From a virus (taxonomy: Duplodnaviria > Caudoviricetes): a DNA stretch of 47,704 bases. The translations under genes were made by a program, and so were the position numbers. The notes under the pieces are model-generated. The model saw nothing but the letters and a program-made list of their open reading frames with translations. It was not told the origin of the DNA and ran no database searches. This document shows positions 1 to 47,704 of this stretch, piece after piece. The stretch is taken from the IMG/VR virus record IMGVR_UViG_3300031965_000049, positions 1 through 47,704 of that record, one strand, 5' to 3'. Numbering within the stretch: the stretch's first letter is position 1; each line of letters starts with the position of its first letter.

Positions 1-38
1 GGTTCGGCTTTCAGTTCATAGCCAAACCGTTATGCCCA
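1..38 (+). mobile_element. Right half of attC-like site (R' GTT at 29)
   Basis: ttcagttcatagccaaaccGTTATGCCCA resembles the right arms at 297..312 and 46777..46803. Confidence 0.7.
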
Positions 39-126
39 ATAGTGGTTTGAGCATTTACCATCATGTTTATCATTTCTTCTGCGTTTATTAAGCAATCGTT
101 TTATTTTCTTCTTTAGCTTTCTATTT
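27..126. repeat. 100-bp terminal direct repeat (copy 1); circular overlap
   Basis: Identical to 47605..47704; identity begins at CCGTTATGCCC, the cassette crossover. Confidence 0.95.
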
Positions 127-248
127 TTGCGTTTATTTTTAACATACCTACATTGTTCGCAATGGCAGCTTTTAATAACTACTGGGCATAACAAAGGCTC
201 ATATTGCATAGCCTTGTCGGTTATTAAAGTGTCGTTTTTTATTGTCAT
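30..248 (-). CDS. Small basic Cys-containing hypothetical protein (cassette cargo)
   Basis: 72-aa ORF; stop lies in the R' GTTA; start lies in the loop of the attC-like hairpin; CHCEQC motif. Confidence 0.6.
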   Translation of the reverse strand: MTIKNDTLITDKAMQYEPLLCPVVIKSCHCEQCRYVKNKRKNRKLKKKIKRLLNKRRRNDKHDGKCSNHYWA

Positions 249-318
249 TTTGCAAGTATTTTAAAGTGAGTAATTCTAATCTAAAAGGTTACGCAACATA
301 GCCAAACCATTATGCAAC
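183..318 (+). mobile_element. attC-like hairpin A1
   Basis: R'' TGGGCATAAC; arms ggctcatattgcatagcctt / aaggttacgcaacatagcc; R' mutated to ATT at 309. Confidence 0.8.
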
Positions 319-321
319 AGA

Positions 322-642
322 TTAAAGAAGCCGCAGCGACCTGAACCAATTTAAAATTCTGTCTTCCTTTGTGTGCGGATAATACCAGCTACCAGTTATT
401 AAAAAAACAAATGGCAATCCGATTAGCATTAAAAGCATCAATGCGATGGCAAATGGTAACGTAAATCTCATTATTGGTTTTACTGTATTTTTCTTTTCGG
501 TATAAAAATCAATACCTAATGAAATCCATCTATCACACATTTCCTCGCTTGAAACTTTATTTAACTCTGGAAATGTTTCTCTGAATTTTGGTATGTAATT
601 CATATCATTATGAGACCATACCCGTTTTAATTTTCTGTACAT
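322..642 (-). CDS. Hypothetical membrane protein (cassette cargo)
   Basis: 106 aa with one hydrophobic segment; lies between two hairpins. Confidence 0.7.
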   Translation of the reverse strand: MYRKLKRVWSHNDMNYIPKFRETFPELNKVSSEEMCDRWISLGIDFYTEKKNTVKPIMRFTLPFAIALMLLMLIGLPFVFLITGSWYYPHTKEDRILNWFRSLRLL

Positions 643-685
643 TTTATTTAAGTTTTTAAGTGAATAATTAAATTAAAAAAGCCGA

Positions 686-785
686 TTGCATAACACGCAA
701 TAAAGCCCATTTGGCTAAATAGTTCGGTGATAACTTGACAAGTTCGTACAAGCCAAACGTGCTTATTGCACCAGTATAAAACAGT
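686..785 (+). mobile_element. attC-like hairpin A2 (degenerate R')
   Basis: TTGCATAAC; arms gcaataaagcccatttggct / agccaaacgtgcttattgc; R' reads ccagtataaaac. Confidence 0.75.
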
Positions 786-788
786 TTG

Positions 789-1010
789 CTATTCAAACTT
801 ATCGCTCCAACATTTAATACTGCAACAGGGAGAGTATTTGCTACTAATCGGTTTACCGCAATCGCAAACCGATTTTATAACATGGGCTAAACCCAATGCT
901 TGCATTATGCTTTCATAGTAAAATCCTAAATTACATTCTTCATTTTGCACACCTTTGTCGTAAACTTCAAATAGTAGTTTTTCTATTTGCTTTCGTTTTT
1001 GTTTTGCCAT
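789..1010 (-). CDS. Small Cys-rich hypothetical protein, largely encoded inside hairpin A3
   Basis: 73-aa ORF with CDCG..CCSIKC; start at 1010 in the loop. Confidence 0.6.
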   Translation of the reverse strand: MAKQKRKQIEKLLFEVYDKGVQNEECNLGFYYESIMQALGLAHVIKSVCDCGKPISSKYSPCCSIKCWSDKFE

Positions 1011-1069
1011 TTCAATTATATTTTGTCGTTAAATAATCGCACTGTGTTTAGCCCCGAAACGTTAACTGC
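873..1069 (+). mobile_element. attC-like hairpin A3
   Basis: TTTTATAAC; arms gggctaaacccaatgc / gcactgtgtttagccc; R' GTTAACTGC at 1061. Confidence 0.8.
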
Positions 1070-1073
1070 AAGG

Positions 1074-1301
1074 CTAATCTGCGTCCGTGCATTTTGAAAA
1101 AGTCAGATTTAAAGCGTTCATTATCGCTTCGTCTGCTAAGGCAGCCGTTTGAATTTCAGTCTGCCATGTTTCGATATGCTTAACAAGGCTTGTAATTTCT
1201 ACCTTGTATTTTTCAGGTATTCGGTTTTTCCGAATGTTCATCCGAGAACCGGAAAGGAGCCTTGAAAGCTCCCCCCAGTTGATTAAGTCTTGTGCGCTCA
1301 T
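1074..1301 (-). CDS. Small putative DNA-binding regulator
   Basis: 75 aa; similar to 46813..47001 (DLINWGELSRLLSG vs DIFKWRQVSTALSG); palindromic operators upstream of its operon. Confidence 0.55.
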   Translation of the reverse strand: MSAQDLINWGELSRLLSGSRMNIRKNRIPEKYKVEITSLVKHIETWQTEIQTAALADEAIMNALNLTFSKCTDAD

Positions 1302-1594
1302 TAGTTGTTGAATTGTTCGTAATACTCAATTCTCTCATCGATGTCTTCATTTGAAAATGGTGCATTCAAATCTTCATTCAACCATTCAACAAATTCATCA
1401 TCGCAATCATCTCTTTGTACTTTGTGATTTTCATCAACGTAATCTTCAAATTCACCACTTCTTTCAACTAATACTGCAAAGCTACTGTTGTCTGCTCTGT
1501 CGTTGTCTTCCATAAGGCAAATTTCAGTATCTGAATATACTCTAACTGTGAAGTTTGTGCCTTTTGCTGCGTTTAAAATCTCTGTTGCTTTCAT
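1301..1594 (-). CDS. Acidic hypothetical protein
   Basis: 97-aa ORF, TAATG-coupled to the next gene, preceded by a promoter-like box. Confidence 0.75.
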   Translation of the reverse strand: MKATEILNAAKGTNFTVRVYSDTEICLMEDNDRADNSSFAVLVERSGEFEDYVDENHKVQRDDCDDEFVEWLNEDLNAPFSNEDIDERIEYYEQFNN

Positions 1595-1632
1595 CTTTTT
1601 AAATTTTTATTTGTTTTGTATCTTATTGATGA

Positions 1633-1700
1633 AGTAAAGATAACCACATTTGTGGTAACCACCAAATGTTTTTATAATTATTTTCCACATTTGTGGTTAT
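1633..1700 (-). promoter_or_regulatory. Promoter with two CCACATTTGTGG operators
   Basis: -7-like TATCTTTA next to taaCCACATTTGTGGtaa (1641..1658) and ttCCACATTTGTGGttat (1683..1700). Confidence 0.65.
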
Positions 1701-1737
1701 TTATTTCAATTCTAAATAAGAACAGAGAAAGCCAACC

Positions 1738-2004
1738 CTAAAAAAATAAAAACAGGGAACGGCAGTCGAGACCTCTTTTGACTTTTTGCCACTCCGTTTT
1801 AAATCCGTAAAGTGGGAGTATTTCTACATTTTCATTGTTAGGATCAACGAAAGATTGTAGTTTTTCAATTACCTGTTGAGCCTGTTCTTTATTGAGAAAT
1901 ATACATTCAAATTTTTTTTCGCTTCTAATGTTTATTTCAATCAACTGGTGCATTTCTCTGACACCAAGCGTTTGGGTTAAATCGGCTTTAATGTTTAATT
2001 CCAT
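1738..2004 (-). CDS. Hypothetical protein; C-terminus probably chimeric across a deletion at ~1766
   Basis: 88-aa ORF runs through the truncated R'' GCAGT of the neighbouring cassette. Confidence 0.55.
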   Translation of the reverse strand: MELNIKADLTQTLGVREMHQLIEINIRSEKKFECIFLNKEQAQQVIEKLQSFVDPNNENVEILPLYGFKTEWQKVKRGLDCRSLFLFF

Positions 2005-2048
2005 ATATTTATATTTTAGTGATAATTAATTACTTAAAAAGAACACGA

Positions 2049-2184
2049 AACCATAACAAAAACTATATATCAATTGGTTTTTCGGTGCTGACAACTCACT
2101 TCGTAGCCCGCAACAGCGGCGGTGCGGCTCGACAGAAATGAAGCCCGCAATCCCCAACTGTATATAGTTCCGGCCGTTATCGGC
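2049..2184 (+). mobile_element. attC-like hairpin A4
   Basis: AACCATAAC; arms aactatatatcaattgg / ccaactgtatatagtt; R' GTTATCGGC at 2176. Confidence 0.8.
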
Positions 2185-2188
2185 AACC

Positions 2189-2584
2189 TTAAAGAGCTGC
2201 ACGTTTCTTTAGCACAATAAATGCAGAATTATCCTTTAGGCTATGTAAACCATCTTCGGTTTGATAATTACAAAATTCTAACTGGTCAACAATTTTCTGC
2301 AAAGTATCGTACTTTTCTTCTTCAATTTCTTCACGGGTTTTCGGTATTACAACTGGTATGGGTTCAGCAATAAAAAATAATTTACCTTTTGAACTCCCTT
2401 CAACTGTCATGGGTTTAAATCCATATTTATTTCCCAAAATTTCCCAGTATTGGTTTATTTGTTCTTGCAAAGAACTTCCCATCGGAGTTCCACCACTTAA
2501 AAACATTACAGGGTCTCCACCGCCTTTATTGATAGCGATAATGTCGTCCATTTCTTCCTGTGTCATTTCAAATTCTTGTCTCAT
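2189..2584 (-). CDS. Hypothetical protein (cassette cargo)
   Basis: 131-aa ORF with an AT-rich leader. Confidence 0.8.
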   Translation of the reverse strand: MRQEFEMTQEEMDDIIAINKGGGDPVMFLSGGTPMGSSLQEQINQYWEILGNKYGFKPMTVEGSSKGKLFFIAEPIPVVIPKTREEIEEEKYDTLQKIVDQLEFCNYQTEDGLHSLKDNSAFIVLKKRAAL

Positions 2585-2784
2585 TTTGTTTATTTTTAAA
2601 TTGTTAATAATTAGTTTGATAAAAAAGGAAGCCGATTTCTAAAGTTGCCATGATGTGTTGTTTTATTGTTTTTGTATACACCAAAGATAAGCATTTACTT
2701 AATACGGGGCAATAGGCAAATGAAAATAAATGAAAATAATTTAAGTATTTGCTTAGTTTATATTGATTCTAAATAAAACAACCC

Positions 2785-2919
2785 ATACCAACAAAATAGC
2801 GGTCAAGTCGGGCAGTAATGGTTTGCAATCTGTATCTTTTCGCCCGTAAATAGTGGTTGACAATAACGGACACCGCCCGTAATCCTGCCCTGCCGCTATT
2901 TGCGGGAGCGTTAGGGTGC
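2785..2919 (+). mobile_element. attC-like hairpin A5
   Basis: ATACCAAC; arms aaatagcggtcaagtcgggcag / ctgccctgccgctattt; R' GTTAGGGTGC at 2910. Confidence 0.75.
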
Positions 2920-2921
2920 AT

Positions 2922-3167
2922 TTAAGAAAGTCGCTCACGTAATCTTGTGATAAACTTGTCAGCCTCAATACCTGCTTTTGACATTGAAAATTCGCCTCTA
3001 TCTTTATGACGAGCGACTAAAATAATATCGTCAATTAATGCCTCTGTAACATCAATAGTGTCTTGTAAGTTTTGAAATCTTACTTCATCAATATTACTTT
3101 CTCCTCGTGGTTCAATCATTCCACATAATCTTTGAGTTACCTCGTAAATGTTTTCTATTCTTTTCAT
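2922..3167 (-). CDS. Hypothetical protein (cassette cargo)
   Basis: ORF 2922..3209; ATG at 3167 after an AT-rich leader is the more likely start. Confidence 0.75.
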   Translation of the reverse strand: MKRIENIYEVTQRLCGMIEPRGESNIDEVRFQNLQDTIDVTEALIDDIILVARHKDRGEFSMSKAGIEADKFITRLRERLS

Positions 3168-3185
3168 TTTGAATTTAATAAAAAC

Positions 3186-3323
3186 GCACCCTGACAATGT
3201 ATATATCAAATTGGGGGTGTCGTTACAATTTGTATATTTGTGCTGTTAATTTACTTTGTCGTGGCTCGATAGGGTAGCACATTTTAATCCCCAACTTGCC
3301 ATATATTTAACGCTAGTTACCAA
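3186..3323 (+). mobile_element. attC-like hairpin A6 (last of array 1)
   Basis: GCACCCTGAC (9/10 complement of GTTAGGGTGC at 2910); arms tatatatcaaattgggg / ccccaacttgccatatat; GTT at 3316. Confidence 0.7.
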
Positions 3324-4242: not shown

Positions 4243-4330
4243 TTTGTTTTAATTTATACTTCAAAGATAAGCATTTACTTAATACAAACCAAGTGTTTTT
4301 GAAAATAATTCCGTTTTTACTTAGTTTTTT
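4243..4330. repeat. 88-bp direct repeat containing a promoter (copy 1)
   Basis: Identical to 7696..7783; contains TATCTTTG on the minus strand; 24 bp also recur at 2682..2705. Confidence 0.9.
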
Positions 4331-7695: not shown

Positions 7696-7783
7696 TTTGT
7701 TTTAATTTATACTTCAAAGATAAGCATTTACTTAATACAAACCAAGTGTTTTTGAAAATAATTCCGTTTTTACTTAGTTTTTT
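7696..7783. repeat. 88-bp direct repeat containing a promoter (copy 2)
   Basis: Identical to 4243..4330; includes the last codons and stop of the helicase gene. Confidence 0.9.
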
Positions 7784-9480: not shown

Positions 9481-9515
9481 GGTTCAATTTATTGAACTGT
9501 ATATATTTGGTAGTT
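9481..9515 (+). mobile_element. attI-like site heading array 2
   Basis: GGTTCAATTTATTGAACTGTATATATTTGGTAGTT, identical to 44233..44267; its GTT (9513) starts a cassette matched by TGTGGCTAAC at 10262. Confidence 0.7.
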
Positions 9516-10313
9516 AGCCACAATACGAAGAAAGCCTCCGAACTGCAACATCATAATATTGTTTTTCCTTTTCAATTCCAATTGATTTTCGATTTAATTT
9601 TAAACAAGCAAGGTTTGTTGTTCCTGAACCCATTGTATTATCTAAAACCACATCATTTTTATTGGTGTAAGTCAATATTAACCATTCTAAAAGTATTAAT
9701 GGTTTTAAAGTTGGATGATGAAATTTCCCTGTTTCGTGTTCTTTTGAAATTGAAATAATTGAAGTTGGGAATTTTTCATCACTTATAATAGTAGGCGTTT
9801 CAATAAAAGTACCATAACAACTATTCTTTTGTGGTTGTTTCATATTACCCTTACTGTGATTTCTTTTATGTGGTTCGCATTTTACCATTTGTGGGTTATA
9901 TGTTGGTAATTGCTTGTAAAATATAATAATATCCTCGTGTTGTCTTAATGGCATCCTACTTGCATTTAAAAAGCCTGTTTTGGCTACCTATCCCAACATA
10001 AATTATACCTCCAAAGTTTCTTATTGCTAATCATTAATTCTGCGGTAAATAAACCCTGCCCAAACAATATTATAATACCATTATCTTTTATAACTCGCTC
10101 ATACTGCTCCCAAAGTAAATTAAACGGTAACACACTATCCCATTTTGCACTTTTGTTTCCTTTGTTTAAAACGCCATAAGGTAAATCGCAAATAATAGCA
10201 TCTATACTCTTATCTTCAATGAAAGGAAAAACATCAAAGCAATCAGCATTAACCAACGTACTGTGGCTAACATGTGCTATATCCCATTTGGGGTTTTGTG
10301 GTAAATTCAACAT
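9514..10313 (-). pseudogene. N6A/N4C DNA methyltransferase (beta class), frameshifted near 9988
   Basis: DLPY in 9984..10313; HPTLKP and LDNTMGSGTT in 9514..9954; one extra base restores ..WD(K)VAKTGFLNASRMP.. Confidence 0.85.
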
Positions 10314-10398
10314 TCGTTCTCGTATTAAAAGTTATTGTAAATTTATAGTTTGGTGCTTCGTAGTCCCAAACGGTACATAGCACCAAACGTTATGCACA
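10262..10398 (+). mobile_element. attC-like hairpin B1
   Basis: TGTGGCTAAC; arms gtgctatatcccatttgggg / cccaaacggtacatagcac; R' GTTATGCACA at 10389. Confidence 0.85.
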
Positions 10399-10401
10399 AC
10401 C

Positions 10402-11402
10402 TTAAAACAGGCTCGGTGCATCTTTGAAAGTTTTAATTCGTTTGTTCGACATATCTACATATTTCTTTTCAATATCGTACCCGATTGCTTTTCTGCCCTC
10501 TTTTACACTCATTGCCATTTCTGTGCCACTTCCTGCAAACGGTACAACTACAAGGTCGTTTTTCGGCTACAAGTGTTTATTAATATCCTTGTGAGCTTTT
10601 CGGGCTTTATTGTATCATGGTCATAGGTTCCAGTTTCGTAGTTTGGTAATCTTATCACATCTCCATAAAACCATTCATTGTTAAATGGTCTGCGTAAGTC
10701 CTCATATTCCTTGCGTAAGTCCTCATATTCCTTGCGTAAGTGTGGGTAGCACCAGTTTTGCAACTTTTCATACATTTCTTTTGTAAACATTGCAGGTTCA
10801 GTTTTATCTAAACTTAAACAAGCAGAAGCAACCCCGCCACCATTTATAGCAGTTCCAAGTGCTGTATTAATATCTTTCAATACTATTTTACCCTTTGCCT
10901 TTCCAATTTCGCAACGTATGTAATCTCTAATATGGTAAACGCATTGCGTTGAATTATAGGTTTCATTGCTATACATTAGCAATCTTTCAGTAAGCGGTGC
11001 AAATGTTCTTAAATCGGGGTTGAATCTAATCTGTTGCTTATGGTCGTGTGTGTTTTCCCATACAAAACTATTCAGCAGGTTAAAATACTTATCAAATATT
11101 ACTTGTGTGTATGCTATTCGTCTTGCATCTCCGTACCAAATTATTGTACCATTATCTGCAAGTATTCTTTTGCACTCAATAGCCCATTTTTCAACGTCTT
11201 TTAAATAATCATCAAAGCTATTCCAAACAAAATCAAACGCCCCTTTTACCTCAAAATACGGAGGGTCTGCAATTATTAAGTTTGCACATTTATCGGGTAG
11301 TTCATTTTTTAAAAAATCGGAATGGAAAACACAATCAAAAGGCTGTGCATAACACGTGGTATGGTTAATTGGGGCTGTATCTGTACTCATAATTTTCTGC
11401 AT
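10402..11402 (-). pseudogene. N6A/N4C DNA methyltransferase, frameshifted in an A5 run at 10559..10563
   Basis: IADPPY and HDTIKP; the SAM motif VVPFAGSGTE..RKAIGYDIE continues in another frame to a stop at 10402. Confidence 0.85.
10691..10741. repeat. 21-bp tandem repeat (about 2.4 units) encoding LRKEYED
   Basis: tgcgtaagtcctcatattcct x2 followed by tgcgtaagt. Confidence 0.9.
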
Positions 11403-11474
11403 TTTATTAAGTTTCTACTAGGTGGATAGGTTGTCGGTATCTAATCCCCAACTAACCATACCACAACACGCTAT
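11344..11474 (+). mobile_element. attC-like hairpin B2 (R' core deleted)
   Basis: TGTGCATAAC; arms gtggtatggttaattgggg / cccaactaaccataccac; the expected GTTATGC is missing before gctattt. Confidence 0.8.
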
Positions 11475-12092
11475 TTAAAAAAGCTCTCGTTGTTGTAAAA
11501 GCATTTTTGCATGATTTGCGCTTTTCAAATTTAGCTCAAAGCCTATTATTTTTCTTTTCAATATTCTCGCTGCTAATAAAGATTTTCCACTACCGCAAAA
11601 AGGGTCTAAAATTAAATCCCCTTCTTTTGTGAAATGATTAAAGAAAAAAGCAAACAATGAAGTTTGTTTATCAAAATTTTGAGAATACTGTTTTATCATT
11701 CTTATTTTTTTTGCTTCAATCAAATTTGAAAAACATTCGTGATTGTTCTCGAATCTCGTCTTTCCAAACCTGAACTCACTCACAAAGTCGGCTAATTGCA
11801 TTGGAGCTTTATTGCTTATCAAGTTTGGAATTACTGTGTTAATTGCGTACATTCGTACAAAATAGTCTAAAAATTTATTTGAAAAAGGAATTAATACTCG
11901 TTCGTTAGTCATTAAAAAAGTGTGACCTGAGCATTTTCTCATCAGTATATTTTCAAACTCATCTAAATTCATCCCAAATGGCGGGTCTGCGAAAACTAAA
12001 TCAACGGTTCTATTGTCAATTTCAAATAATTTAGAATCGCAATTGTACAATTCAACATATTCATCTATGTAAATTAAGTGTTCTTTTAGCAT
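11475..12092 (-). CDS. N6A/N4C DNA methyltransferase (compact, apparently intact)
   Basis: FADPPF; LILDPFCGSGKS; IIGFELN. Confidence 0.88.
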   Translation of the reverse strand: MLKEHLIYIDEYVELYNCDSKLFEIDNRTVDLVFADPPFGMNLDEFENILMRKCSGHTFLMTNERVLIPFSNKFLDYFVRMYAINTVIPNLISNKAPMQLADFVSEFRFGKTRFENNHECFSNLIEAKKIRMIKQYSQNFDKQTSLFAFFFNHFTKEGDLILDPFCGSGKSLLAARILKRKIIGFELNLKSANHAKMLLQQRELF

Positions 12093-12334
12093 AAAGCATT
12101 ACTTAAATTAATAACGGTTTCAACGTATCCTTTATTATTTAAAATAAAGTCAAACAATGCCGTCTTAATGTCATTTTTTTGCTTTGTTTTTTTCATACTT
12201 AATGTATAATATTTTGCTATTTTTTCAAGTCCTTGCAATGCTTCTCTTTTATGAAAATCATTCCCTGTCTCAATAAATTTTAAAACATCGTAGATTATCT
12301 TATCCTTGCACTTATATTTATTAAATTCTCTCAT
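12086..12334 (-). CDS. Hypothetical protein co-cassetted with the methyltransferase
   Basis: ORF 12086..12364; likely ATG at 12334; overlaps the MTase start. Confidence 0.65.
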   Translation of the reverse strand: MREFNKYKCKDKIIYDVLKFIETGNDFHKREALQGLEKIAKYYTLSMKKTKQKNDIKTALFDFILNNKGYVETVINLSNALC

Positions 12335-12353
12335 TGTTAAAATATAAAAAACA

Positions 12354-12488
12354 GCGCATAACACACAATGTAAAATATACGGGTGTTTGTTGCAAATTGA
12401 ACGGTCCTACCTTTAATTGTCATTCGTGTATCGGGATAGGATACCGCTTTTAATCCCGTACATTTCATATTGTCAAACGTTATGCCTC
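12354..12488 (+). mobile_element. attC-like hairpin B3
   Basis: GCGCATAAC; arms acaatgtaaaatatacggg / cccgtacatttcatattgt; R' GTTATGCCTC at 12479. Confidence 0.85.
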
Positions 12489-12674
12489 ATTGTGGAGGAC
12501 ACAACAAAACGTGCTTTTCGTTTCGATACTATCTACGTATCCACCATCCCAACCTGTTTTTAGTTCTATTGTTATTTCACTGCCTATTTCATTACAAAAA
12601 CCATCGTTTTCAGCACCTTCATAATCATAAAAGGTATTTTGTTTCCAATGCTTACAAGTAGAACAATGAGGCAT
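12480..12674 (-). CDS. Small Cys-rich hypothetical protein (cassette cargo)
   Basis: CSTCKHW..GFC..FCCVLH; stop in the R' GTTA; an upstream ATG at 12735 in the loop is out of frame by 1 nt. Confidence 0.7.
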   Translation of the reverse strand: MPHCSTCKHWKQNTFYDYEGAENDGFCNEIGSEITIELKTGWDGGYVDSIETKSTFCCVLHNEA

Positions 12675-12803
12675 AACGGCAAAGTATATTTAATGCCTGT
12701 GTTTCTGCGTTATTCAAGTTCTGTTCTTTTTTCATATTTATCTGTATTTTGAAAATTTGTAATTCTAAATCAGGCACTAAACATACCTGCGACCGTTGTG
12801 TAT
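12663..12803 (+). mobile_element. attC-like hairpin B4
   Basis: ACAATGAGGCATAAC is the 15/15 complement of 12479..12493; arms gtatatttaatgcctg / caggcactaaacatac; GTT at 12795. Confidence 0.85.
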
Positions 12804-13333: not shown

Positions 13334-13519
13334 GATGTTTAGTTTTTATGTCTTAGCATCGTTGCTTTGACTGATACAAATATCGTATTAATTATACGAA
13401 CCACCAAATAAAAACGTATTTATTTTTTTTCTCCCCTCTTTCGGTTTTTCAAACCGATTTGGATTAAATCACGAATTTCACGGTTAACATTACCTTCGTT
13501 GTTTTTCTTAGAATTACTA

Positions 13520-16682: not shown

Positions 16683-17204
16683 ATGAAAGACTTCACCTAT
16701 AACGGTAAATTCAAGCTTTGTAAGCTTTGCGCAAATGAATCGTGCAATATCCCATGCGAAACTATTAAAAACGGAATATCGCTAAGGGAATCAGGGCAAT
16801 TGGAATTTGAACAATTGAAAAAACGTGAGGCTGAAAAAGCAGAACGCAGACGCATGAAAATTGAGGCAAAGAAAAAACTAGGCCTTATCCCGGAAAATGA
16901 AGATGTTGAAATAATCAGAAAGGAAAAAGAAAAAGCAGAACGCAAACAAAAAAGGTATCTTGCAAAGATTGAACTAGGACTTGTAGACTTGTCGAAAAAA
17001 TTGATTTTGACAAAAATTGAACGTGAATTATTTCGTGTACGTGAAACGGAAAATGAACTTATAGACGTAGTGTTAATGGACTTTGGTAGTGGTGAAAGGG
17101 AATATTTCAGGGTATATGATAGTCGTGAAGATGGCCGCTTTGATGTACTCATGCATAGAGCACAAATGAATGTAATCAAAAAAAACAACCATGAGGAAGG
17201 ATGA
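16683..17204 (+). CDS. Hypothetical basic protein with an N-terminal Cys cluster
   Basis: 173-aa ORF; CKLC..C..C. Confidence 0.75.
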   Translation: MKDFTYNGKFKLCKLCANESCNIPCETIKNGISLRESGQLEFEQLKKREAEKAERRRMKIEAKKKLGLIPENEDVEIIRKEKEKAERKQKRYLAKIELGLVDLSKKLILTKIERELFRVRETENELIDVVLMDFGSGEREYFRVYDSREDGRFDVLMHRAQMNVIKKNNHEEG

Positions 17205-38189: not shown

Positions 38190-38238
38190 TATATGACAAC
38201 AAAAATTAAAGTTTAGTATATGACAACAAAAATTAAAG
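38185..38238. repeat. 27-bp perfect tandem duplication
   Basis: tttagtatatgacaacaaaaattaaag x2. Confidence 0.95.
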
Positions 38239-39518
38239 GCAACCGCATCGATGTTGATTCGGTGAAAAATGCGCTTAACTATAGTGCTGAAGAAATTGGA
38301 GCAACCCCCACCGGTGGCTACGCCGGAACAGCGCAGGATCTGTATCAGCTCACCCAAAACAATTACAGCGGCGTAATCCTCCCTACCGATGGAACGACCG
38401 CTATGACTCGCGTTGGGTTAAGCGACATTGAATGGTACAAAAAGGGGCTCAAGATCGTCCTGTTAGCCGACGATCTGACCGAAAACGTGGTAATTGCGGA
38501 TTATGCAAACCCCGAGATTGTAGCCGGCGCAGACCTGACCGGCGCCTCCGGGCAAGTAATGGTGAAGATACCGCGCATCTACTATCGCGAGGTGCTCGAC
38601 GGAAGCGGGGTGTTAATACGGGTTGAAATCTCGCCAATACGCCTGGTTGGCTTCGAATGCCATCCTAAGTTTGTGCGACCTGATGGCACAGAGCGTGAGT
38701 TCATCTACATCGGAGCATACGAAGCAAGCAACTCAGGAAGCAACGTTTTGCAATCCGTATCAGGGGTTGCACCGCTAACTTCACAGACACTTGCTACATT
38801 CAGAAGCCGTGCATTTGCAAGAGGTGAGGGGTGGTATCCTTACGATTTCTGGACTCAGCACCTAATTCAGTTGCTTTTTTATGTGAATCATGCAACATTC
38901 AACTCGCAGACCGCATTGCCCGGCTACACAGAAAGAACAGCGTGGAATGACGCCTACAAGCGCAATACGGGACGGTCGAACATATTGACAAGCATGAGCG
39001 GAACCATAGCTGCCGACCTCGGGGGGCTGGACATTGGTCTGGACGACGCGAACTGGCGAATTGCCGAAAAGAATATTGCAAATCGCTTTCTGTTCATTGA
39101 AAACCTGTTCGGGCATATCTGGAAATTCATGGACGGCTGCGCATTCGACGGACGTGTCGGACAGAGCAATCTGGCATACGTAACAAACGACCCAGCTCTA
39201 TTCACGTCGGTTGACGCTGAAATAACAACAAAATACAAAGCCTATGGCGCAGCCTTACCGGCAGCCACAAACGAGAACTACATACAAAGCATGCAATCCG
39301 GCTTTCTACCGAAAGCCCACGGAGGCGCATCGACTACGTATGTTACCGACTACTTCTGGTCACATCTCGACGATGCTTCTCGTGATTATTTCCGTGCCGT
39401 CCGCGCGGGTGGCGCTCTGAATAATGGCGGTCCGGCGGGTGTCGCGGCGCGTTATTCGACTAACGGTCTCGGTGCTGCGTTTTCGGATGTCGGGTCGCGG
39501 CTCTGCGCAGCGCCGTAG
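38220..39518 (+). CDS. DGR target protein; putative receptor-binding protein with a C-type-lectin-like C-terminal domain
   Basis: GQVMVKIP, YIGAYEA, IENLFGHIWKFMDG, C-terminal RAGG..NNG..AG..VGSRLC; VR matches the downstream TR. Confidence 0.9.
   Translation: MTTKIKGNRIDVDSVKNALNYSAEEIGATPTGGYAGTAQDLYQLTQNNYSGVILPTDGTTAMTRVGLSDIEWYKKGLKIVLLADDLTENVVIADYANPEIVAGADLTGASGQVMVKIPRIYYREVLDGSGVLIRVEISPIRLVGFECHPKFVRPDGTEREFIYIGAYEASNSGSNVLQSVSGVAPLTSQTLATFRSRAFARGEGWYPYDFWTQHLIQLLFYVNHATFNSQTALPGYTERTAWNDAYKRNTGRSNILTSMSGTIAADLGGLDIGLDDANWRIAEKNIANRFLFIENLFGHIWKFMDGCAFDGRVGQSNLAYVTNDPALFTSVDAEITTKYKAYGAALPAATNENYIQSMQSGFLPKAHGGASTTYVTDYFWSHLDDASRDYFRAVRAGGALNNGGPAGVAARYSTNGLGAAFSDVGSRLCAAP
39390..39503 (+). 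repeat. DGR variable repeat (VR)
   Basis: 12 of 13 mismatches to the TR fall on TR adenines. Confidence 0.92.
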
Positions 39519-39559
39519 TCGCCGGAAAATTTTTCACAGGTTACCGGTTCCACTGCGCT

Positions 39560-39646
39560 TTCCGTGTCGTCCACGCAGGTGGCAATCTGAATAATGGCAG
39601 TCAAGCGGGTGTCGCAGCGCGTAATTCGAATAACGGGTCGCAGCTA
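39560..39646 (+). repeat. DGR template repeat (TR) lacking 27 nt relative to the VR
   Basis: AAT/AAC-rich copy of the VR; nine VR codons have no counterpart. Confidence 0.9.
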
Positions 39647-42872: not shown

Positions 42873-43037
42873 TTAAAAAATTACTGCTTCATCTTCATCA
42901 TCGGGATAATGCACGACTTTTTTCTCAGTATGATTAAGCGCTGCATCTTTCTGAACTATCCGGATCAACCAGATAGCGGAATACACGACATAGAATAACA
43001 ATACAATTGTTGCAGGAATCAGGATTACTTTGTACAT
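42873..43037 (-). CDS. 54-aa membrane peptide, below the ORF-track cutoff
   Basis: MYKVILIPATIVLLFYVVYSAIWLIRIVQK..DDEDEAVIF. Confidence 0.55.
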   Translation of the reverse strand: MYKVILIPATIVLLFYVVYSAIWLIRIVQKDAALNHTEKKVVHYPDDEDEAVIF

Positions 43038-43420
43038 AGCTGCTCGATTTTGAATGTAAATTCATCTCGCGGATATTCATCTTTAGATGTTGTGTAAGTA
43101 AAGTCTAATTCACATCCGGAATTGCCGTCCCACAATGCAACATCTAGATCATAAATTGCGACTCCAATAAGTTCCGACGTCTCTGGCAATTCATGCGTAC
43201 AGGGTATAATTGAATATTCTTCGACTTTCCGGTACTGGATATCCATTTCATATACTGCAACCTTGATATGTATCGTATCAGATACTTCGAAATAGCCATC
43301 GCCCATGTCTTTCTCCACCGGCTTTTCACGTATTTCCTGACAGATGTATTCAAGGATTTCGCAATCAACATCAACTATGTTAATCGATTTTTTTTCAATA
43401 GTTGGGTTAAATTCTTTCAT
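43025..43420 (-). CDS. Acidic hypothetical protein
   Basis: 131-aa ORF. Confidence 0.75.
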   Translation of the reverse strand: MKEFNPTIEKKSINIVDVDCEILEYICQEIREKPVEKDMGDGYFEVSDTIHIKVAVYEMDIQYRKVEEYSIIPCTHELPETSELIGVAIYDLDVALWDGNSGCELDFTYTTSKDEYPRDEFTFKIEQLCTK

Positions 43421-43452: not shown

Positions 43453-43487
43453 GGTTCAATTTATTGAAGTGGGTATATTTGGTAGTT
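43453..43487 (+). mobile_element. attI-like site, apparently empty
   Basis: 32/35 identical to 9481..9515; no attC-like hairpin follows before the next copy. Confidence 0.6.
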
Positions 43488-43512
43488 ATTTATCTTTTCA
43501 AAGTCTATACTC

Positions 43513-43557
43513 CAAATATACCCTAGTTTTTTTATTCAAAACATGACTAAAATCATG
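43513..43557 (-). promoter_or_regulatory. Palindrome-class promoter (copy 5 of 5)
   Basis: TATATTTG box plus CATGAC-taaa-ATCATG 21 bp away. Confidence 0.65.
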
Positions 43558-43999
43558 TTTCCAAAATATCTTCAATTAGTCCCTGAAATTGCTCAAGACT
43601 TCTTATAATATAATAATCAAATCCAGCCTTTTCAACAAACAATTGCCAATGCACCTGATCGGGTGACTGTCGCCCTGTTTCGGTCTTAAATTCAATTAGG
43701 TGTGCTACACCTTCCCAAAGAAAGATAGTGTCTGAAACGCCAGGTATTATTCCCATAGCCTTTGCAATAGCTCCAGAAATACCATTGCCTCGCTTGCATT
43801 GAGATATTACTTCATTCACTTTTTCTAAAACTAGCCTTTTATCATTTATGTTTTCAATTACGAAAAGCATAGCATTGATTATTACTTTTACTGATAGTCT
43901 TGCGCCCTCATTTTGTACCGCAAAAAACAGTCCTCTTGTCTCAGGGTAATTATTCCAAAGCCATTTTACGCATTCGGCTTGTATTTGTGATTCTTTCAT
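43553..43999 (-). CDS. VRR-NUC domain nuclease
   Basis: ESQIQAECVKW, MGIIPGVSD, IEFKTETGRQSPDQ, YYIIRS. Confidence 0.9.
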   Translation of the reverse strand: MKESQIQAECVKWLWNNYPETRGLFFAVQNEGARLSVKVIINAMLFVIENINDKRLVLEKVNEVISQCKRGNGISGAIAKAMGIIPGVSDTIFLWEGVAHLIEFKTETGRQSPDQVHWQLFVEKAGFDYYIIRSLEQFQGLIEDILET

Positions 44000-44232
44000 A
44001 AGTTATCGATTACAAATTTTACATTGTGTATTTTTCTTATTGTTCGGGACTTCTTAACTCCGTTATAACTCAAATTATTCGATTTCGCATAATCCGGAAT
44101 AGTTTGAAGATTTAGAAAATCACCCGCCAGTTCAATTAATTGAACCAATCCGTCGCTACTCCATTTGCCTCTTTGAATAGATTCACCTAGTTTATTAAGT
44201 GAAAGTTTCTCGTATTCAGATATTTGTGTCAT
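43996..44232 (-). CDS. Small putative DNA-binding protein abutting the attI-like site
   Basis: TIPDYAKSNNLSYNGVKK is HTH-like; its ATG is adjacent to 44233. Confidence 0.7.
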   Translation of the reverse strand: MTQISEYEKLSLNKLGESIQRGKWSSDGLVQLIELAGDFLNLQTIPDYAKSNNLSYNGVKKSRTIRKIHNVKFVIDNL

Positions 44233-44267
44233 GGTTCAATTTATTGAACTGTATATATTTGGTAGTT
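44233..44267 (+). mobile_element. attI-like site heading array 1
   Basis: Identical to 9481..9515; GTTAACGCCT at 44265 is matched by AGGCGTTAAC at 45009. Confidence 0.7.
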
Positions 44268-44272
44268 AACGC

Positions 44273-44443
44273 CTATTTAAAAGGTACTCGGTAGATAACG
44301 CAATCTGGGAGGACAATTGGGAATTTCAAAGCTTTGAGAGAATGATAAGGAAGATTAAACTCGTCGCAAAGCTTTTTAAAATTACCCCGACAAATTGGTT
44401 CTTTATCGGGGTAAATTAGGATGATTACTGATTGACGTTGCAT
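44273..44443 (-). CDS. Small hypothetical protein (possibly DNA-binding)
   Basis: ORF 44273..44458; TAATG-coupled ATG at 44443; GNFKKLCDEFNLPYHSL. Confidence 0.65.
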   Translation of the reverse strand: MQRQSVIILIYPDKEPICRGNFKKLCDEFNLPYHSLKALKFPIVLPDCVIYRVPFK

Positions 44444-44607
44444 TAGTTTTCTTTCCAATAAATTAACAATTCAGCTTCTCTTTCTGCATTATTGCAGCTA
44501 AATGTTGCAAACCAAAACTCGCTCATTTTGCTTTCAATGTTTTCAATGTCAGTTCCTAAAAAATCTGAAAATTGAGCTGCTAATTTTTTTAATTCTGAAT
44601 TTTCCAT
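44443..44607 (-). CDS. 54-aa hypothetical protein, below the ORF-track cutoff
   Basis: MENSELKKLAAQFSDFLG..YWKEN. Confidence 0.6.
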   Translation of the reverse strand: MENSELKKLAAQFSDFLGTDIENIESKMSEFWFATFSCNNAEREAELLIYWKEN

Positions 44608-44626: not shown

Positions 44627-44890
44627 TTAAAAATATACTGCATCTGTATTTGTATCTTCCGGGAAAATGTCTTCTTTTTTAGAAGCCTTAACATTCTTTG
44701 CAAATTCAATAACTTCATCAATATTATTAAAAGTTCCTTTTTTTGCAGTTAAGGCATCTTTAACAATACGATAGTTTTCAAACTCATACTTATTCAAATC
44801 ATTCATTAATTGAGAAACTTCAGGATGATTCTTTTGTCTTCCGCTTGTAGCTTCAAATTCGATTCCGGTAATGTTACAATTTGCTTTCAT
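44627..44890 (-). CDS. Hypothetical protein
   Basis: ORF 44627..44932; ATG at 44890 lies downstream of a -7-like box. Confidence 0.75.
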   Translation of the reverse strand: MKANCNITGIEFEATSGRQKNHPEVSQLMNDLNKYEFENYRIVKDALTAKKGTFNNIDEVIEFAKNVKASKKEDIFPEDTNTDAVYF

Positions 44891-45143: not shown

Positions 45144-45190
45144 ATAGCCTTTCTTCGTAGCAAGGTTAGTGCTTAATAAGTCTTTTTGTT

Positions 45191-45352
45191 TTATTTTTTC
45201 CCTACCCGCTTCTGGTTTTTCAAACCAGTTAAGTAAGTGCTAAGTAAATATTGTACTAAAGAACTAAAAGAACGGCTTTCGGATTTTGCTTGCTTTTGTC
45301 CGTCATTTAAAGTTTCTTCGTCAATGGTTACGCTTGTATTTTTCGTTGCCAT
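45191..45352 (-). CDS. 53-aa ribbon-helix-helix-like protein, below the ORF-track cutoff
   Basis: MATKNTSVTIDEETLNDGQKQAKSESRSFSSLVQYLL. Confidence 0.7.
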   Translation of the reverse strand: MATKNTSVTIDEETLNDGQKQAKSESRSFSSLVQYLLSTYLTGLKNQKRVGKK

Positions 45353-45353
45353 A

Positions 45354-46547
45354 TTAAATACTTTCAATTTGTGTTTTTGCCCATTTTTTGAATGCAGAAA
45401 ATTTCATGGTAATATCTAAAGCAATATCCTGTGATTCTTTAGAAGTAAATACAGGCATTGGCACAAATCTAATATCATTAATCCATGCGTTTAGCTTTTC
45501 TTTGTCCGGGGCTTTATTTGCTTTATTTTCAGCTTCAATTCTTGCTTTTTCTTCTTTATCGGCTTTCTCTTTCGCTTCAATTTCTGCTTTTTGTTTTGCC
45601 TGTAATTCAGCTTGCAGTCTATCTTTTTCAGCCTTATCTCTTTTCTCTTTTGCTTCGGCTTCCTTAGCTTTTTGGGCTTCAAATTCATAATGCTGTTTTG
45701 CTCCTATTTTAATTTCAGAAAGTTCTTTTTGATATTCTTTTTCAGGAGAATTTAAAAGTTTTCCATAATCACGAATAAAAATAATGTACGGTTTAAGCTC
45801 TTCATTTCTTTTTTTATCCTGCAAATCTTTTCTATCCTTTTCATCTTTTTGCTTTTTACGCTCAATTTCTAAAGCCTTTTCTTTTGCTTCGGCTTCCTTT
45901 TTCAATCGTTCATTTTCAACCTTAATTCTTTCACGTTCGGCAGCTTCTTCTTTTTCTTTTTGGATTCTGGCTTCTTCGGCTTTCTTTTCAGCTTCAATTT
46001 TATCATTAAAAGCCTTTTCAATCCCTGTAAAAAACATTTCAAAAGTTTCGTCACTCATGTGTTCAAATTCAGAGCGTAACATTTCGGGAGCTACTTTTGC
46101 AACTTTAAGTATTCGTTGTTGTGTTTTCAACTCTTTTTGTTCAGCTTCAAAACGTTCTTTAGTTTCTTCTTTCCAACGTGCATTTTCTTCAATTTCTTTT
46201 GTTAAAATTTGCATCGTTTGCTTTGCCTTTAACCAAAGTGAATCTTCTGTTTTGTAGCTTAACATTTGTTGTTGAACATCAGCTCTTTTTGCATCAAATG
46301 TTTTTTCAGCTTCCAAACGTTTTTGTTTTACACCAAGTCGTATTGTGGCGCAAAGTTTCATATTTACTTTGTCGTTTTCATCGGAAACAACTATACTGTC
46401 AAGTTGCTCGCGCATTTTTGAAACTCCATTAAAGACATGGTTTAAAACCGTTTGCACTTCGTTTCTTTTTTCAAGTGAAACGTTTTTTGCTATTTCAGCA
46501 ACCTCATTCGGTAATACTACTGTTAATTGATTTTCCATAAAATACAT
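45354..46547 (-). CDS. Long E/K/A-rich coiled-coil phage protein
   Basis: 397 aa; C-terminal KAPDKEKL. Confidence 0.85.
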   Translation of the reverse strand: MYFMENQLTVVLPNEVAEIAKNVSLEKRNEVQTVLNHVFNGVSKMREQLDSIVVSDENDKVNMKLCATIRLGVKQKRLEAEKTFDAKRADVQQQMLSYKTEDSLWLKAKQTMQILTKEIEENARWKEETKERFEAEQKELKTQQRILKVAKVAPEMLRSEFEHMSDETFEMFFTGIEKAFNDKIEAEKKAEEARIQKEKEEAAERERIKVENERLKKEAEAKEKALEIERKKQKDEKDRKDLQDKKRNEELKPYIIFIRDYGKLLNSPEKEYQKELSEIKIGAKQHYEFEAQKAKEAEAKEKRDKAEKDRLQAELQAKQKAEIEAKEKADKEEKARIEAENKANKAPDKEKLNAWINDIRFVPMPVFTSKESQDIALDITMKFSAFKKWAKTQIESI

Positions 46548-46812: not shown

Positions 46813-47001
46813 TTAAAGCTCTTTTGAAGCGTCAGTGTTTTGATTTTTAAAATGCTTTTTTAGCCAACTTTCGGCAAAGTCGATTAGCTCTTGATAAGCT
46901 TCGTTGTACTTATCGCCCTTGTAGTCAGAACGAACACTTTCCGTATTTCCAGAAAGTGCTGTTGAAACTTGTCGCCATTTGAAAATATCAGATGCTTTCA
47001 T
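46813..47001 (-). CDS. Small putative DNA-binding regulator (paralogue of 1074..1301)
   Basis: ORF 46813..47064; likely start MKASDIFKW at 47001. Confidence 0.6.
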   Translation of the reverse strand: MKASDIFKWRQVSTALSGNTESVRSDYKGDKYNEAYQELIDFAESWLKKHFKNQNTDASKEL

Positions 47002-47146
47002 CGCTATCTCTTTCTTCTGCTGAATAGTATCCATAATAATAGTGTCCAAATTCATCAACATCATTTTCCCAATTTTCGGGAACTGCTTTTAAGAATTGAT
47101 CTTTTGGAATTGGTTGCCCGTTGTAGAAGTAATTGTAAGTTTTCAT
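46988..47146 (-). CDS. 52-aa Tyr-rich hypothetical protein, below the ORF-track cutoff
   Basis: MKTYNYFYNGQPIPKDQFLKAVPENWENDVDEFGHYYYGYYSAEERDSDESI. Confidence 0.65.
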   Translation of the reverse strand: MKTYNYFYNGQPIPKDQFLKAVPENWENDVDEFGHYYYGYYSAEERDSDESI

Positions 47147-47167: not shown

Positions 47168-47467
47168 TTAAACCATTGCCATAAATGAAGTGCCGTCGTA
47201 TTTTGCTTTTAAAGCTTCTGTTTTTTTGTCGCTACCTGTTACTTTTGAATTGTTGAAGTAAACATTGCCAATCAAAAAAGGCAACATTGAAGCAGCTCTA
47301 TTTGCGCTTTTAATGTTTTGCATTTGCATACTTTTAAGAACTTGAACCATAAAGTCTTTTAATGAAATTCCGTTAAAAAATTTTTCGGTTGTAAGGTTGT
47401 TGTATTTACTGATAACTTGTTCTCTGTTTTCGCTTAACCAGGTTGTGAGTTCGAATGTTGCTTTCAT
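47168..47467 (-). CDS. Hypothetical protein
   Basis: 99-aa ORF after a promoter with operator repeats. Confidence 0.8.
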   Translation of the reverse strand: MKATFELTTWLSENREQVISKYNNLTTEKFFNGISLKDFMVQVLKSMQMQNIKSANRAASMLPFLIGNVYFNNSKVTGSDKKTEALKAKYDGTSFMAMV

Positions 47468-47553: not shown

Positions 47554-47604
47554 TAAATCGAAAAATAAACAAAGAAAACCGAAGCCATTGACTGTTATTT
47601 GTAG

Positions 47605-47704
47605 CCGTTATGCCCAATAGTGGTTTGAGCATTTACCATCATGTTTATCATTTCTTCTGCGTTTATTAAGCAATCGTTTTATTTTCTTCTTTAGCTTTCT
47701 ATTT
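47605..47704. repeat. 100-bp terminal direct repeat (copy 2)
   Basis: Identical to 27..126. Confidence 0.95.

Follow-up and report, generated by a model that had tools for sequence, protein, structure and literature searches.

Which elements divide the early genes of the phage record IMGVR_UViG_3300031965_000049 into small units, and by what route could those units have been brought together? The window considered here is the whole phage record of 47.7 kb (47,704 nucleotides), in which terminase, portal and tail genes lie on the plus strand and the early genes on the minus strand. The early genes are cut into units by hairpins bounded by AAC and GTT, and the arrays formed in this way, C/A and B, amount to 9,921 bases or ~21% of the genome, in agreement with the approximately 10 kb of accessory genome that the original prediction on this DNA had assigned to them. 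We consider it well founded, and hold with considerable confidence, that these units are gene cassettes for which a tyrosine recombinase related to IntI, lacking the I2 insertion and acting in trans, likely carries out recombination at the G|TT of a folded single strand. This reading draws on the sequence anatomy of the sites, their matching ends and strand bias, units common to several phages with ends at G|TT, duplicates in host arrays and linkage to a recombinase. The system works like an integron, but departs from canonical integrons in I2, in the extrahelical bases and in the orientation of the genes.

The 12 hairpins of about 100-200 bp that had been proposed come close to the actual count, which is eleven full sites plus a 3' half-site (1-31) and a collapsed site (47579-47609). 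Each of the eleven full sites is an imperfect palindrome with an R'' (AAC) and an R' (GTT) core, and the AAC-to-GTT distance is 118-121 nt in ten of them and 82 nt in the remaining one. A covariance model was trained on ten window hairpins, which match it by construction; it adds the eleventh site (688-779; 18 bits, E 0.015), and no further same-strand site rises above noise when the window is scanned with it. The stems of the window sites covary (88% paired, score 0.58 versus 0.21 for shuffled stems, 0/500). An unguided scan for AAC...GTT folds was rejected: chance hairpins abounded in its output and most of the true sites were absent from it, and therefore energy alone is not discriminating.

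The R'' box of a unit had been claimed to complement the start of its own unit and not the next GTT, and this property holds. The seven end-pairs cited at the outset were all found in place and with the same scores (10/10, 9/10, 10/10, 10/10, 15/15, 10/10 and 9/10), and an eighth cognate pair, 309/692, had been missed. Over the nine bases that follow GTT, comparison of R'' with its own start gives 66 matches, as against 39 with the next GTT; the own start is favoured in eight of the 11 window units, and 66 matches were reached in only one of 200,000 permutations. The strand bias is likewise clear: the stem mismatches, described earlier as mostly A-C on the top strand and hence G-T on the bottom one, are G.T on the minus strand in 36 cases versus 8 on the plus strand (p 2.5e-5, strand-neutral aligner). 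Folding of both strands, which had been proposed as a check, points the same way, the minus strand being lower in energy in 10 of 11 sites, but the gaps are often <1 kcal/mol, the z-scores range from +0.4 to -3.6 and the result is weak when taken alone. An independent pairwise alignment places an extra left-arm stem base in 5/11 window sites, and no conserved extrahelical base was found across the eleven. In addition, all cassette cargo in the window lies antisense to the polarity of the cassettes, contrary to what is seen in classical integrons, a feature on which the original prediction had not remarked.

The covariance-model search of Bacteroidota chromosomes and phages, suggested together with that prediction, found the site family in phages and in 51 of 101 Bacteroidota genomes, versus 2 of 101 genomes of Bacillota. 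Because the hairpin sites are spread in Bacteroidota genomes, we infer that the host of the phage belongs to this phylum. A Bacillota genome with four sites on one contig (G218:C64:248-30189, best E 4e-11) reflects either transfer beyond Bacteroidota or a misbinned contig. In an alignment of 104 outside sites fitted to the model, 96% of the stem is paired, the covariation score is 0.71 versus 0.15, and two stem positions are G.T in 100/104 sites. The core comprises two A-T pairs (104/104) and a C-G pair (103/104), while no extra stem base is seen in 86/104 sites on the 5' arm and 98/104 on the 3' arm, counts to be read with the fact that the model to which these sites were fitted lacks extra bases. 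Units were counted from 103 of the 104 hits (one is cut by a contig end) as neighbouring sites <2.6 kb apart, yielding 28 phage units, spread over 11 loci, and 34 chromosomal units, of which a single genome supplies 25. The own start beats the next GTT in 31/34 chromosomal and 24/28 phage units. In 27 of the 30 chromosomal units in which an open reading frame (ORF) is present, genes run sense to the top strand; in all 28 phage units they run antisense. The wobble bias favours the bottom strand in both, at 184:10 in chromosomes, in which that strand is non-coding, and at 148:31 in phages. Several sites of Algoriphagus halophilus (L048 first cassette, L052, L080), including the first cassette of both arrays, have within the R'' box an element of 1.85 kb with features of a group II intron; PMC3001079 describes group IIC introns as entering attC bottom strands, and integrons likewise carry group IIC-attC introns.

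As for the enzyme, the claim that the window encodes no tyrosine recombinase is confirmed: PF00589 gives 0 matches at E<=10, the best E with a custom hidden Markov model is 0.7, and neither a gene nor a remnant was found. The genome had also been called apparently complete, and this is not established, given that the record is of the linear class with a CheckV completeness of 82% and that its 100-nt terminal repeat (bases 27-126 repeat 47605-47704) is the start of cassette A1 with two different left neighbours. The gene order over the join agrees with that of L001, the closest relative found (helicase 85% identical). Among 21 related phage records, most of them incomplete, one has a PF00589 gene, which encodes a 275-aa recombinase and lies between a cassette array and a helicase. 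Four genomes were picked by hairpin pattern alone, and in all of them (4/4) the distance between the best hit to this phage recombinase and the first site of an array is 0.6-2.5 kb; a lack of similar sites near any host tyrosine recombinase had been named as an outcome that would speak against cassette capture, and the opposite was found. The 101-genome sample contains 27 genomes with both sites and enzyme, 24 with sites only, 7 with enzyme only and 43 with neither (odds ratio 6.9, p 5e-5, a statistic that ignores kinship among genomes). Among the matches listed, a site lies within 22 kb on the same contig in at least 18 of the 27 genomes with both, and at least 12 arrays are located downstream of a co-oriented enzyme gene and at least six upstream, as in phages. 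Of 11 further phage loci that encode the enzyme, a set that includes two duplicate pairs and four loci with <850 nt upstream, six also have sites nearby.

The catalytic residues of the recombinase are conserved. Its best match among solved structures is IntI4 (2A3V), in comparison with which it has 22 instead of 65 residues in the I2 region, i.e. ~43 fewer. With TIGR02249 it scores 169.9 bits versus a cut-off of 265 (0/5 records above the cut-off), and it falls far under the XerC/XerD cut-offs. The host versions of the enzyme possess long N-terminal extensions (a HARP hit in 1/3) and are co-oriented upstream of the array. Queries of the cultured phage collection with the recombinase retrieved only distant integrases (30-37%). 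Hence, of the host-supplied integron-like integrase originally envisaged, cassette capture at G|TT and a preferred folded strand are well supported, but the likely enzyme is I2-less and need not be supplied by the host, as other phages encode short versions of it adjoining sites of the same family.

The array heads resemble attI sites. A 35-nt motif ending in G|TT occurs in three copies in the window and in none of 100 shuffles, each copy preceding a resident minus-strand gene, with 0-33 nt between it and the start codon. Head H2 of array C/A (44233-44267, plus strand) comprises a 16-nt palindrome, a TATA box and a G|TT (44265); it directly adjoins gene 43996-44232 at the start codon and has the same layout as the heads next to recombinase genes. 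Head H1 of array B (9481-9515, plus strand; G|TT 9513) lies 14 nt before the helicase start codon (9467, minus strand). The third head, H3 (43453-43487, plus strand), has 3 mismatches, is apparently cassette-free and precedes the start of gene 43025-43420 by 33 nt; no cognate R'' was found near it. Elsewhere, G|TT heads adjoin a recombinase in eight phage and five chromosomal loci, in the eight distinct phage loci ~45-60 nt before the recombinase start, whereas the three head copies of the window are enzyme-free. The exact 34-nt head motif has 0 matches in viral contigs and occurs in metagenomes only in IMGVR_UViG_3300031965_000049; at <=8 mismatches, it has no match in the related loci compared. 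The 16-nt palindrome is present in each head (9481-9497, 43453-43469, 44233-44249), and the heads of two host genomes and several phages have other palindromes at or near the same place; it is possibly a second binding site or an operator. A VRR-NUC gene lies together with a small gene in the interval 43485-44264, which runs from G|TT to G|TT between two heads and might act as a single unit with an attI-like site at either end.

Comparison of related phages and hosts indicates that units have ends at G|TT. The window and L089 share a 461-bp block, 89.8% identical, that runs from G 2176 to 2636 next to an unrelated left flank and ends at the R'' of cassette A4; L089 retains this R'' together with its hairpin, while only a stub is left in the window. 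In L025 and L030, both of which carry a homologue of gene 322-642 as a cassette, the sole shared block of >=100 nt is 477 bp long, 95% identical and has a core at both ends. At two array junctions, the sequences of L003 and L004, which are 97-99% alike, diverge directly after AAC. The comparison advised by the original prediction thus bears out gain and loss at G|TT for L089 and L025/L030, and in part for L003/L004. In host arrays, the first cassette is duplicated downstream, again from G|TT to G|TT (G021, 852 bp, 100%; G023, 642 bp, 90%).

Two DNA runs, X1 and X2, were available as contigs only; they are possibly the source of the record, so they are not independent of it. In run X2, unitigs over A1 (27-288) have a depth of 50 and those over A4 of 82, versus 12-16 for the backbone. 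A contig of run X1 leaves the window at 12794, adjoining the G|TT of B4, and its letters, assumed to adjoin the junction as shown, resemble another hairpin arm. Loose ends of run contigs at 9481 and 9516 were considered as new cassettes and set aside, as by eye they match the other two head copies of the window. Uncovered stretches of X1 and X2 and the joint 1619-3152 (side 20, depth 2.5) were left out of account, and no cassette circle was seen in the contigs. The DNA of array A gave two matches in 401 Bacteroidota genomes, both to a hairpin and none to cargo, which fits a cassette pool kept mainly among phages. In the cultured phage collection, neither a homologue of gene 322-642 nor a DNA match to site B1 was found. 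At the position of array C, L001 (reversed, 3051-3090) has an almost empty cassette of ~40 bases, gene-free and with matching ends. The L004 array terminates distally (17140-17170) in a GTT core located at a resident gene's 3' end, which suggests that this array was inserted at a secondary site.

Other origins of the hairpins have to be weighed against these data. Since the phage encodes both a YqaJ exonuclease and an Erf-like annealing protein, the hairpins could be dispersed repeats at whose ends modules are swapped by homologous recombination, with no site-specific enzyme; the 54-59% column identity among the sites and the non-GTT breakpoints of L003/L004 would fit such exchange. This explanation, however, does not account for R'' mirroring its own start, for blocks that start at G next to an unrelated left flank (L089, L025), for head duplicates running from G|TT to G|TT or for a recombinase at array heads, and it seems unlikely to us. 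The arrays might instead be ordinary attC-site clusters that have no integron integrase (CALIN), served by the canonical integron integrase of the host. The AAC/GTT cores and the strand bias are the same, and PMC9892861 reports that five of six tested phage attC sites recombined with IntI1. Yet TIGR02249 above its cut-off was found in 0 of 4 array-bearing genomes, a conserved extrahelical base is lacking, and the sites occur in 51/101 genomes of a phylum in which PMC9024848 reports integrons as rare. The site that failed with IntI1 in PMC9892861, P12002L_attC1, has by eye the shape of the present hairpin family and a 9/9 cognate start, although this is a single case and the 60-nt site was left unscored by the model. 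Altogether, the prospects of ordinary CALIN are slim.

An RNA function in the early transcript is also conceivable, with the hairpins serving as terminators, RNase III processing sites or small RNAs and G.U pairs giving the bias: the strand that folds better is, in the phage, also the coding one, and the starts of four window ORFs lie within a hairpin or its R'' box. The chromosomal bias, on the other hand, falls on the strand opposite the genes (184:10; 27/30 units), and RNA folding is ruled out as its cause because the favoured strand is non-coding there. Rfam yielded four chance-level matches in the window, none on a hairpin site and none near the gathering score, and the cognate ends and breakpoints are left unexplained. 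Chromosomal orientation contradicts the notion, raised along with the original prediction, that the hairpins are only terminators or ncRNAs. As the whole explanation, an RNA function is scarcely credible, while a secondary RNA role of the hairpins in phages may exist.

Several points weigh against cassettes moved by an I2-less recombinase. The activity of this recombinase on the hairpin sites is a prediction, and I2 is held in PMC7790495 to be necessary for cassette capture. Non-cognate ends are found in three of the 11 window units (R'' at 2055, 2790 and 12360); one of these pairs, near A4, is explained by a lost site, because the hairpin is gone in the window and kept in L089. Degenerate R' boxes, of which there are several, and frameshifts in two methyltransferases add to the non-cognate units in marking the arrays as partly decayed. 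Gene 322-642 has 10 homologues in phages, of which only three qualify clearly as cassettes; many L003/L004 breakpoints lie away from GTT; and the closest relative, L001, has neither array B nor a head copy. The link to the enzyme is also weakened by the 24 genomes with sites but no recombinase hit and the seven of the reverse kind, by the neglect of kinship in their statistic and by unrelated plasmid integrases that reach similar scores. Moreover, with a CheckV completeness of 82%, a recombinase may be hidden in the unassembled part of the genome.

Among the known systems close to the arrays, one is itself phage-borne, as integrase-less attC clusters in phages are already published: across 10,705 genomes, PMC9892861 (Qi et al. 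2023) reports 17 phage CALINs, one of which lies in Polaribacter phage P12002L and has methyltransferase cassettes, and notes that P12002L_attC1 failed with IntI1. The likeness extends to a Bacteroidota phage of similar size, methyltransferase cargo and the unit layout of P12002L. As far as that account goes, the clusters are treated as ordinary attC, with two divergent sites in P12002L, and no dedicated recombinase, head or reversed cargo is named. The published P12002L_attC2, which recombined with IntI1, corresponds to L023 29176-29244, an array head as read here, in the opposite direction. Integrons (class 1, Vibrio cholerae) resemble the present system in the AAC/GTT cores, the G|TT crossover, the cassette-specific ends, the single favoured folded strand, the putative head beside a tyrosine recombinase and the first-cassette duplicates, and the group II-type elements in A. 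halophilus sites have their counterpart there as well. They differ in that the canonical enzyme has the I2 insertion (65 versus 22 residues) and attC has extrahelical bases, whereas near-invariant G.T pairs (100/104) and a 10-bp end match are seen here; in integrons the cassette gene lies upstream of the site on the top strand, while the phage cargo is antisense and the chromosomal cargo sense in 27/30 units. Integrative mobile elements exploiting Xer (IMEX) and CTX phage share with the arrays a folded single strand and an I2-less enzyme foreign to the phage (PMC7790495). IMEX integrate a whole genome through XerCD by dif mimicry; here, many gene-sized units meet at GTT cores and the enzyme belongs to a separate family. 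With regard to taxonomic range, PMC8618304 counts Bacteroidota among the phyla with integrons, and IntegronFinder 2.0 recorded one complete integron in Bacteroidetes (PMC9024848). Intermediates between Xer and IntI are described as lacking in PMC7790495. No description of an I2-less cassette system in Bacteroidota was found in the literature searched, most subscription journals being outside that search.

If cassettes move as proposed, a cassette would, by analogy with integrons, leave as a circle, its R'' pairing with its own start; the circle would re-enter at an attI-like head or a bare GTT, and replicative resolution would account for cassette duplicates. The strand would likely be chosen through the fixed G.T wobbles and a 3-nt asymmetric spacer and not through extrahelical bases. 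Owing to the reversed cargo, the cassettes of the phage would be read with the early transcript, some start codons lying in a hairpin, and methyltransferase cargo would protect against host restriction. The order is head-recombinase-helicase in L060 and L061 and head-helicase in the window, and the phage keeps three heads before resident genes where recombinase-bearing phages keep one before the recombinase. Probably, the phage lost the enzyme in the course of its descent and today relies on a host copy or on a co-infecting phage; as the L060 helicase is only 30% identical to that of the window, a further point against this reading, the loss is put forward as an analogy and not as a traced event.

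On balance, we lean towards the wider view that Bacteroidota and their phages possess a second integron system, with an I2-less recombinase as a living counterpart of the Xer-IntI step, G.T-marked hairpins in about half of Bacteroidota genomes, a reversed phage cassette pool and enzyme-less phages with several docking sites that borrow the enzyme. If so, the origin of integrons would become open to direct test through an I2-less enzyme that shuffles cassettes bounded by hairpins, and a gene-capture system would be present in a phylum where integrons are reported as rare by PMC9024848. Part of phage mosaicism would also gain a site-specific mechanism; in this genome the share is ~21%, methyltransferases that would counter restriction among it, and sites with so few sequence demands might serve as DNA assembly tools.

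The individual features of array C/A are as follows, with cassettes and units on the plus strand and hairpin sites on the minus, i.e. the folded, strand; unless noted otherwise, the sites were both aligned and matched by the covariance model. Cassette C1 (44265-45018; ends 10/10 complementary) has minus-strand ORFs 44273-44443, 44443-44607 and 44627-44890 and is followed by site C1 (45012-45140). Cassette C2 (45134-46684, ends 9/10) holds minus-strand genes 45191-45352, coding for a ribbon-helix-helix protein (PF07878, E 8e-5, under the cut-off), and 45354-46547 (397 aa), and is followed by site C2 (46678-46806). Unit C3 (46800-47609; ORFs 46813-47064 and 47168-47467) ends in the collapsed site 47579-47609, the G|TT of which (47607) starts cassette A1. 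A second, different left neighbour of A1 is the 3' arm of a further hairpin (1-31, plus strand), and the two neighbours diverge two bases before G|TT. Cassette A1 itself (29-192, ends 10/10) carries ORF 30-248, which starts inside hairpin A1 (186-315). Cassette A2 (309-694, 7/9 cognate) carries gene 322-642 (phrog_36118) and is followed by the short site A2 (688-779), which has a degenerate R', was recovered by the covariance model and has an 89% homologue in L035/L041. One or more composite units with non-cognate ends (780-2057; ORFs 789-1010, 1074-1301, 1301-1594 and 1738-2004) hold a leftover GTT at 1061 and lead to site A3 (2051-2182). Cassette A4 (2176-2639) comprises gene 2189-2584 and the R'' stub (2628-2639) of the lost hairpin, and site A4 spans 2786-2916. 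Cassette A5 (2910-3195, ends 9/10) carries gene 2922-3167 and has a homologue with its own R'' and hairpin in L087; site A5 (3189-3318), with a degenerate R', forms the distal end of the array.

Array B is dominated by methyltransferases. Cassette B1 (9513-10271, ends 10/10) contains a frameshifted N6/N4 DNA methyltransferase (ORFs 9984-10313 and 9514-9954; PF01555, phrog_67) that starts inside hairpin B1 (10265-10395). The DNA methyltransferase of cassette B2 (10389-11353, ends 10/10; gene 10548-11402) has a frameshift near its end and starts inside hairpin B2 (11347-11476), whose R' is degenerate. Unit B3 (11470-12362), with non-cognate ends, holds methyltransferase 11475-12092 and ORF 12086-12334 and precedes site B3 (12356-12485). 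Cassette B4 (12479-12677, ends 15/15) consists of a 64-aa ORF (12480-12674) with its ATG within the R'' box; its site B4 (12671-12801) was matched by the covariance model, and in run X1 the left neighbour of its G|TT (12795) is a different one. Further on, positions 13419-13455 match the 3' end of the ribbon-helix-helix gene (45190-45226) at 84% and probably represent a remnant lying where array B ends.

Apart from the arrays, the window contains the remnant of a diversity-generating retroelement (39389-39466 and 39559-39636, with a stub to ~39780). A variable repeat is located at the end of tail gene 38220-39518 and is accompanied by a template repeat, 10 of the 11 differences between them falling at template adenines; no intact reverse transcriptase gene was found among the window genes. 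We take a short reading frame following the repeats to resemble the C-terminus of a reverse transcriptase of such retroelements. Finally, an 88-nt perfect repeat is present at 4243-4330 and 7696-7783, with related copies at 2662-2705 and 16099. The repeat and its related copies carry CAAAGATA, the minus strand of which fits the Bacteroidota -7 promoter box, and similar motifs occur in units C1 and C3, so that some cassettes may bring their own promoter.

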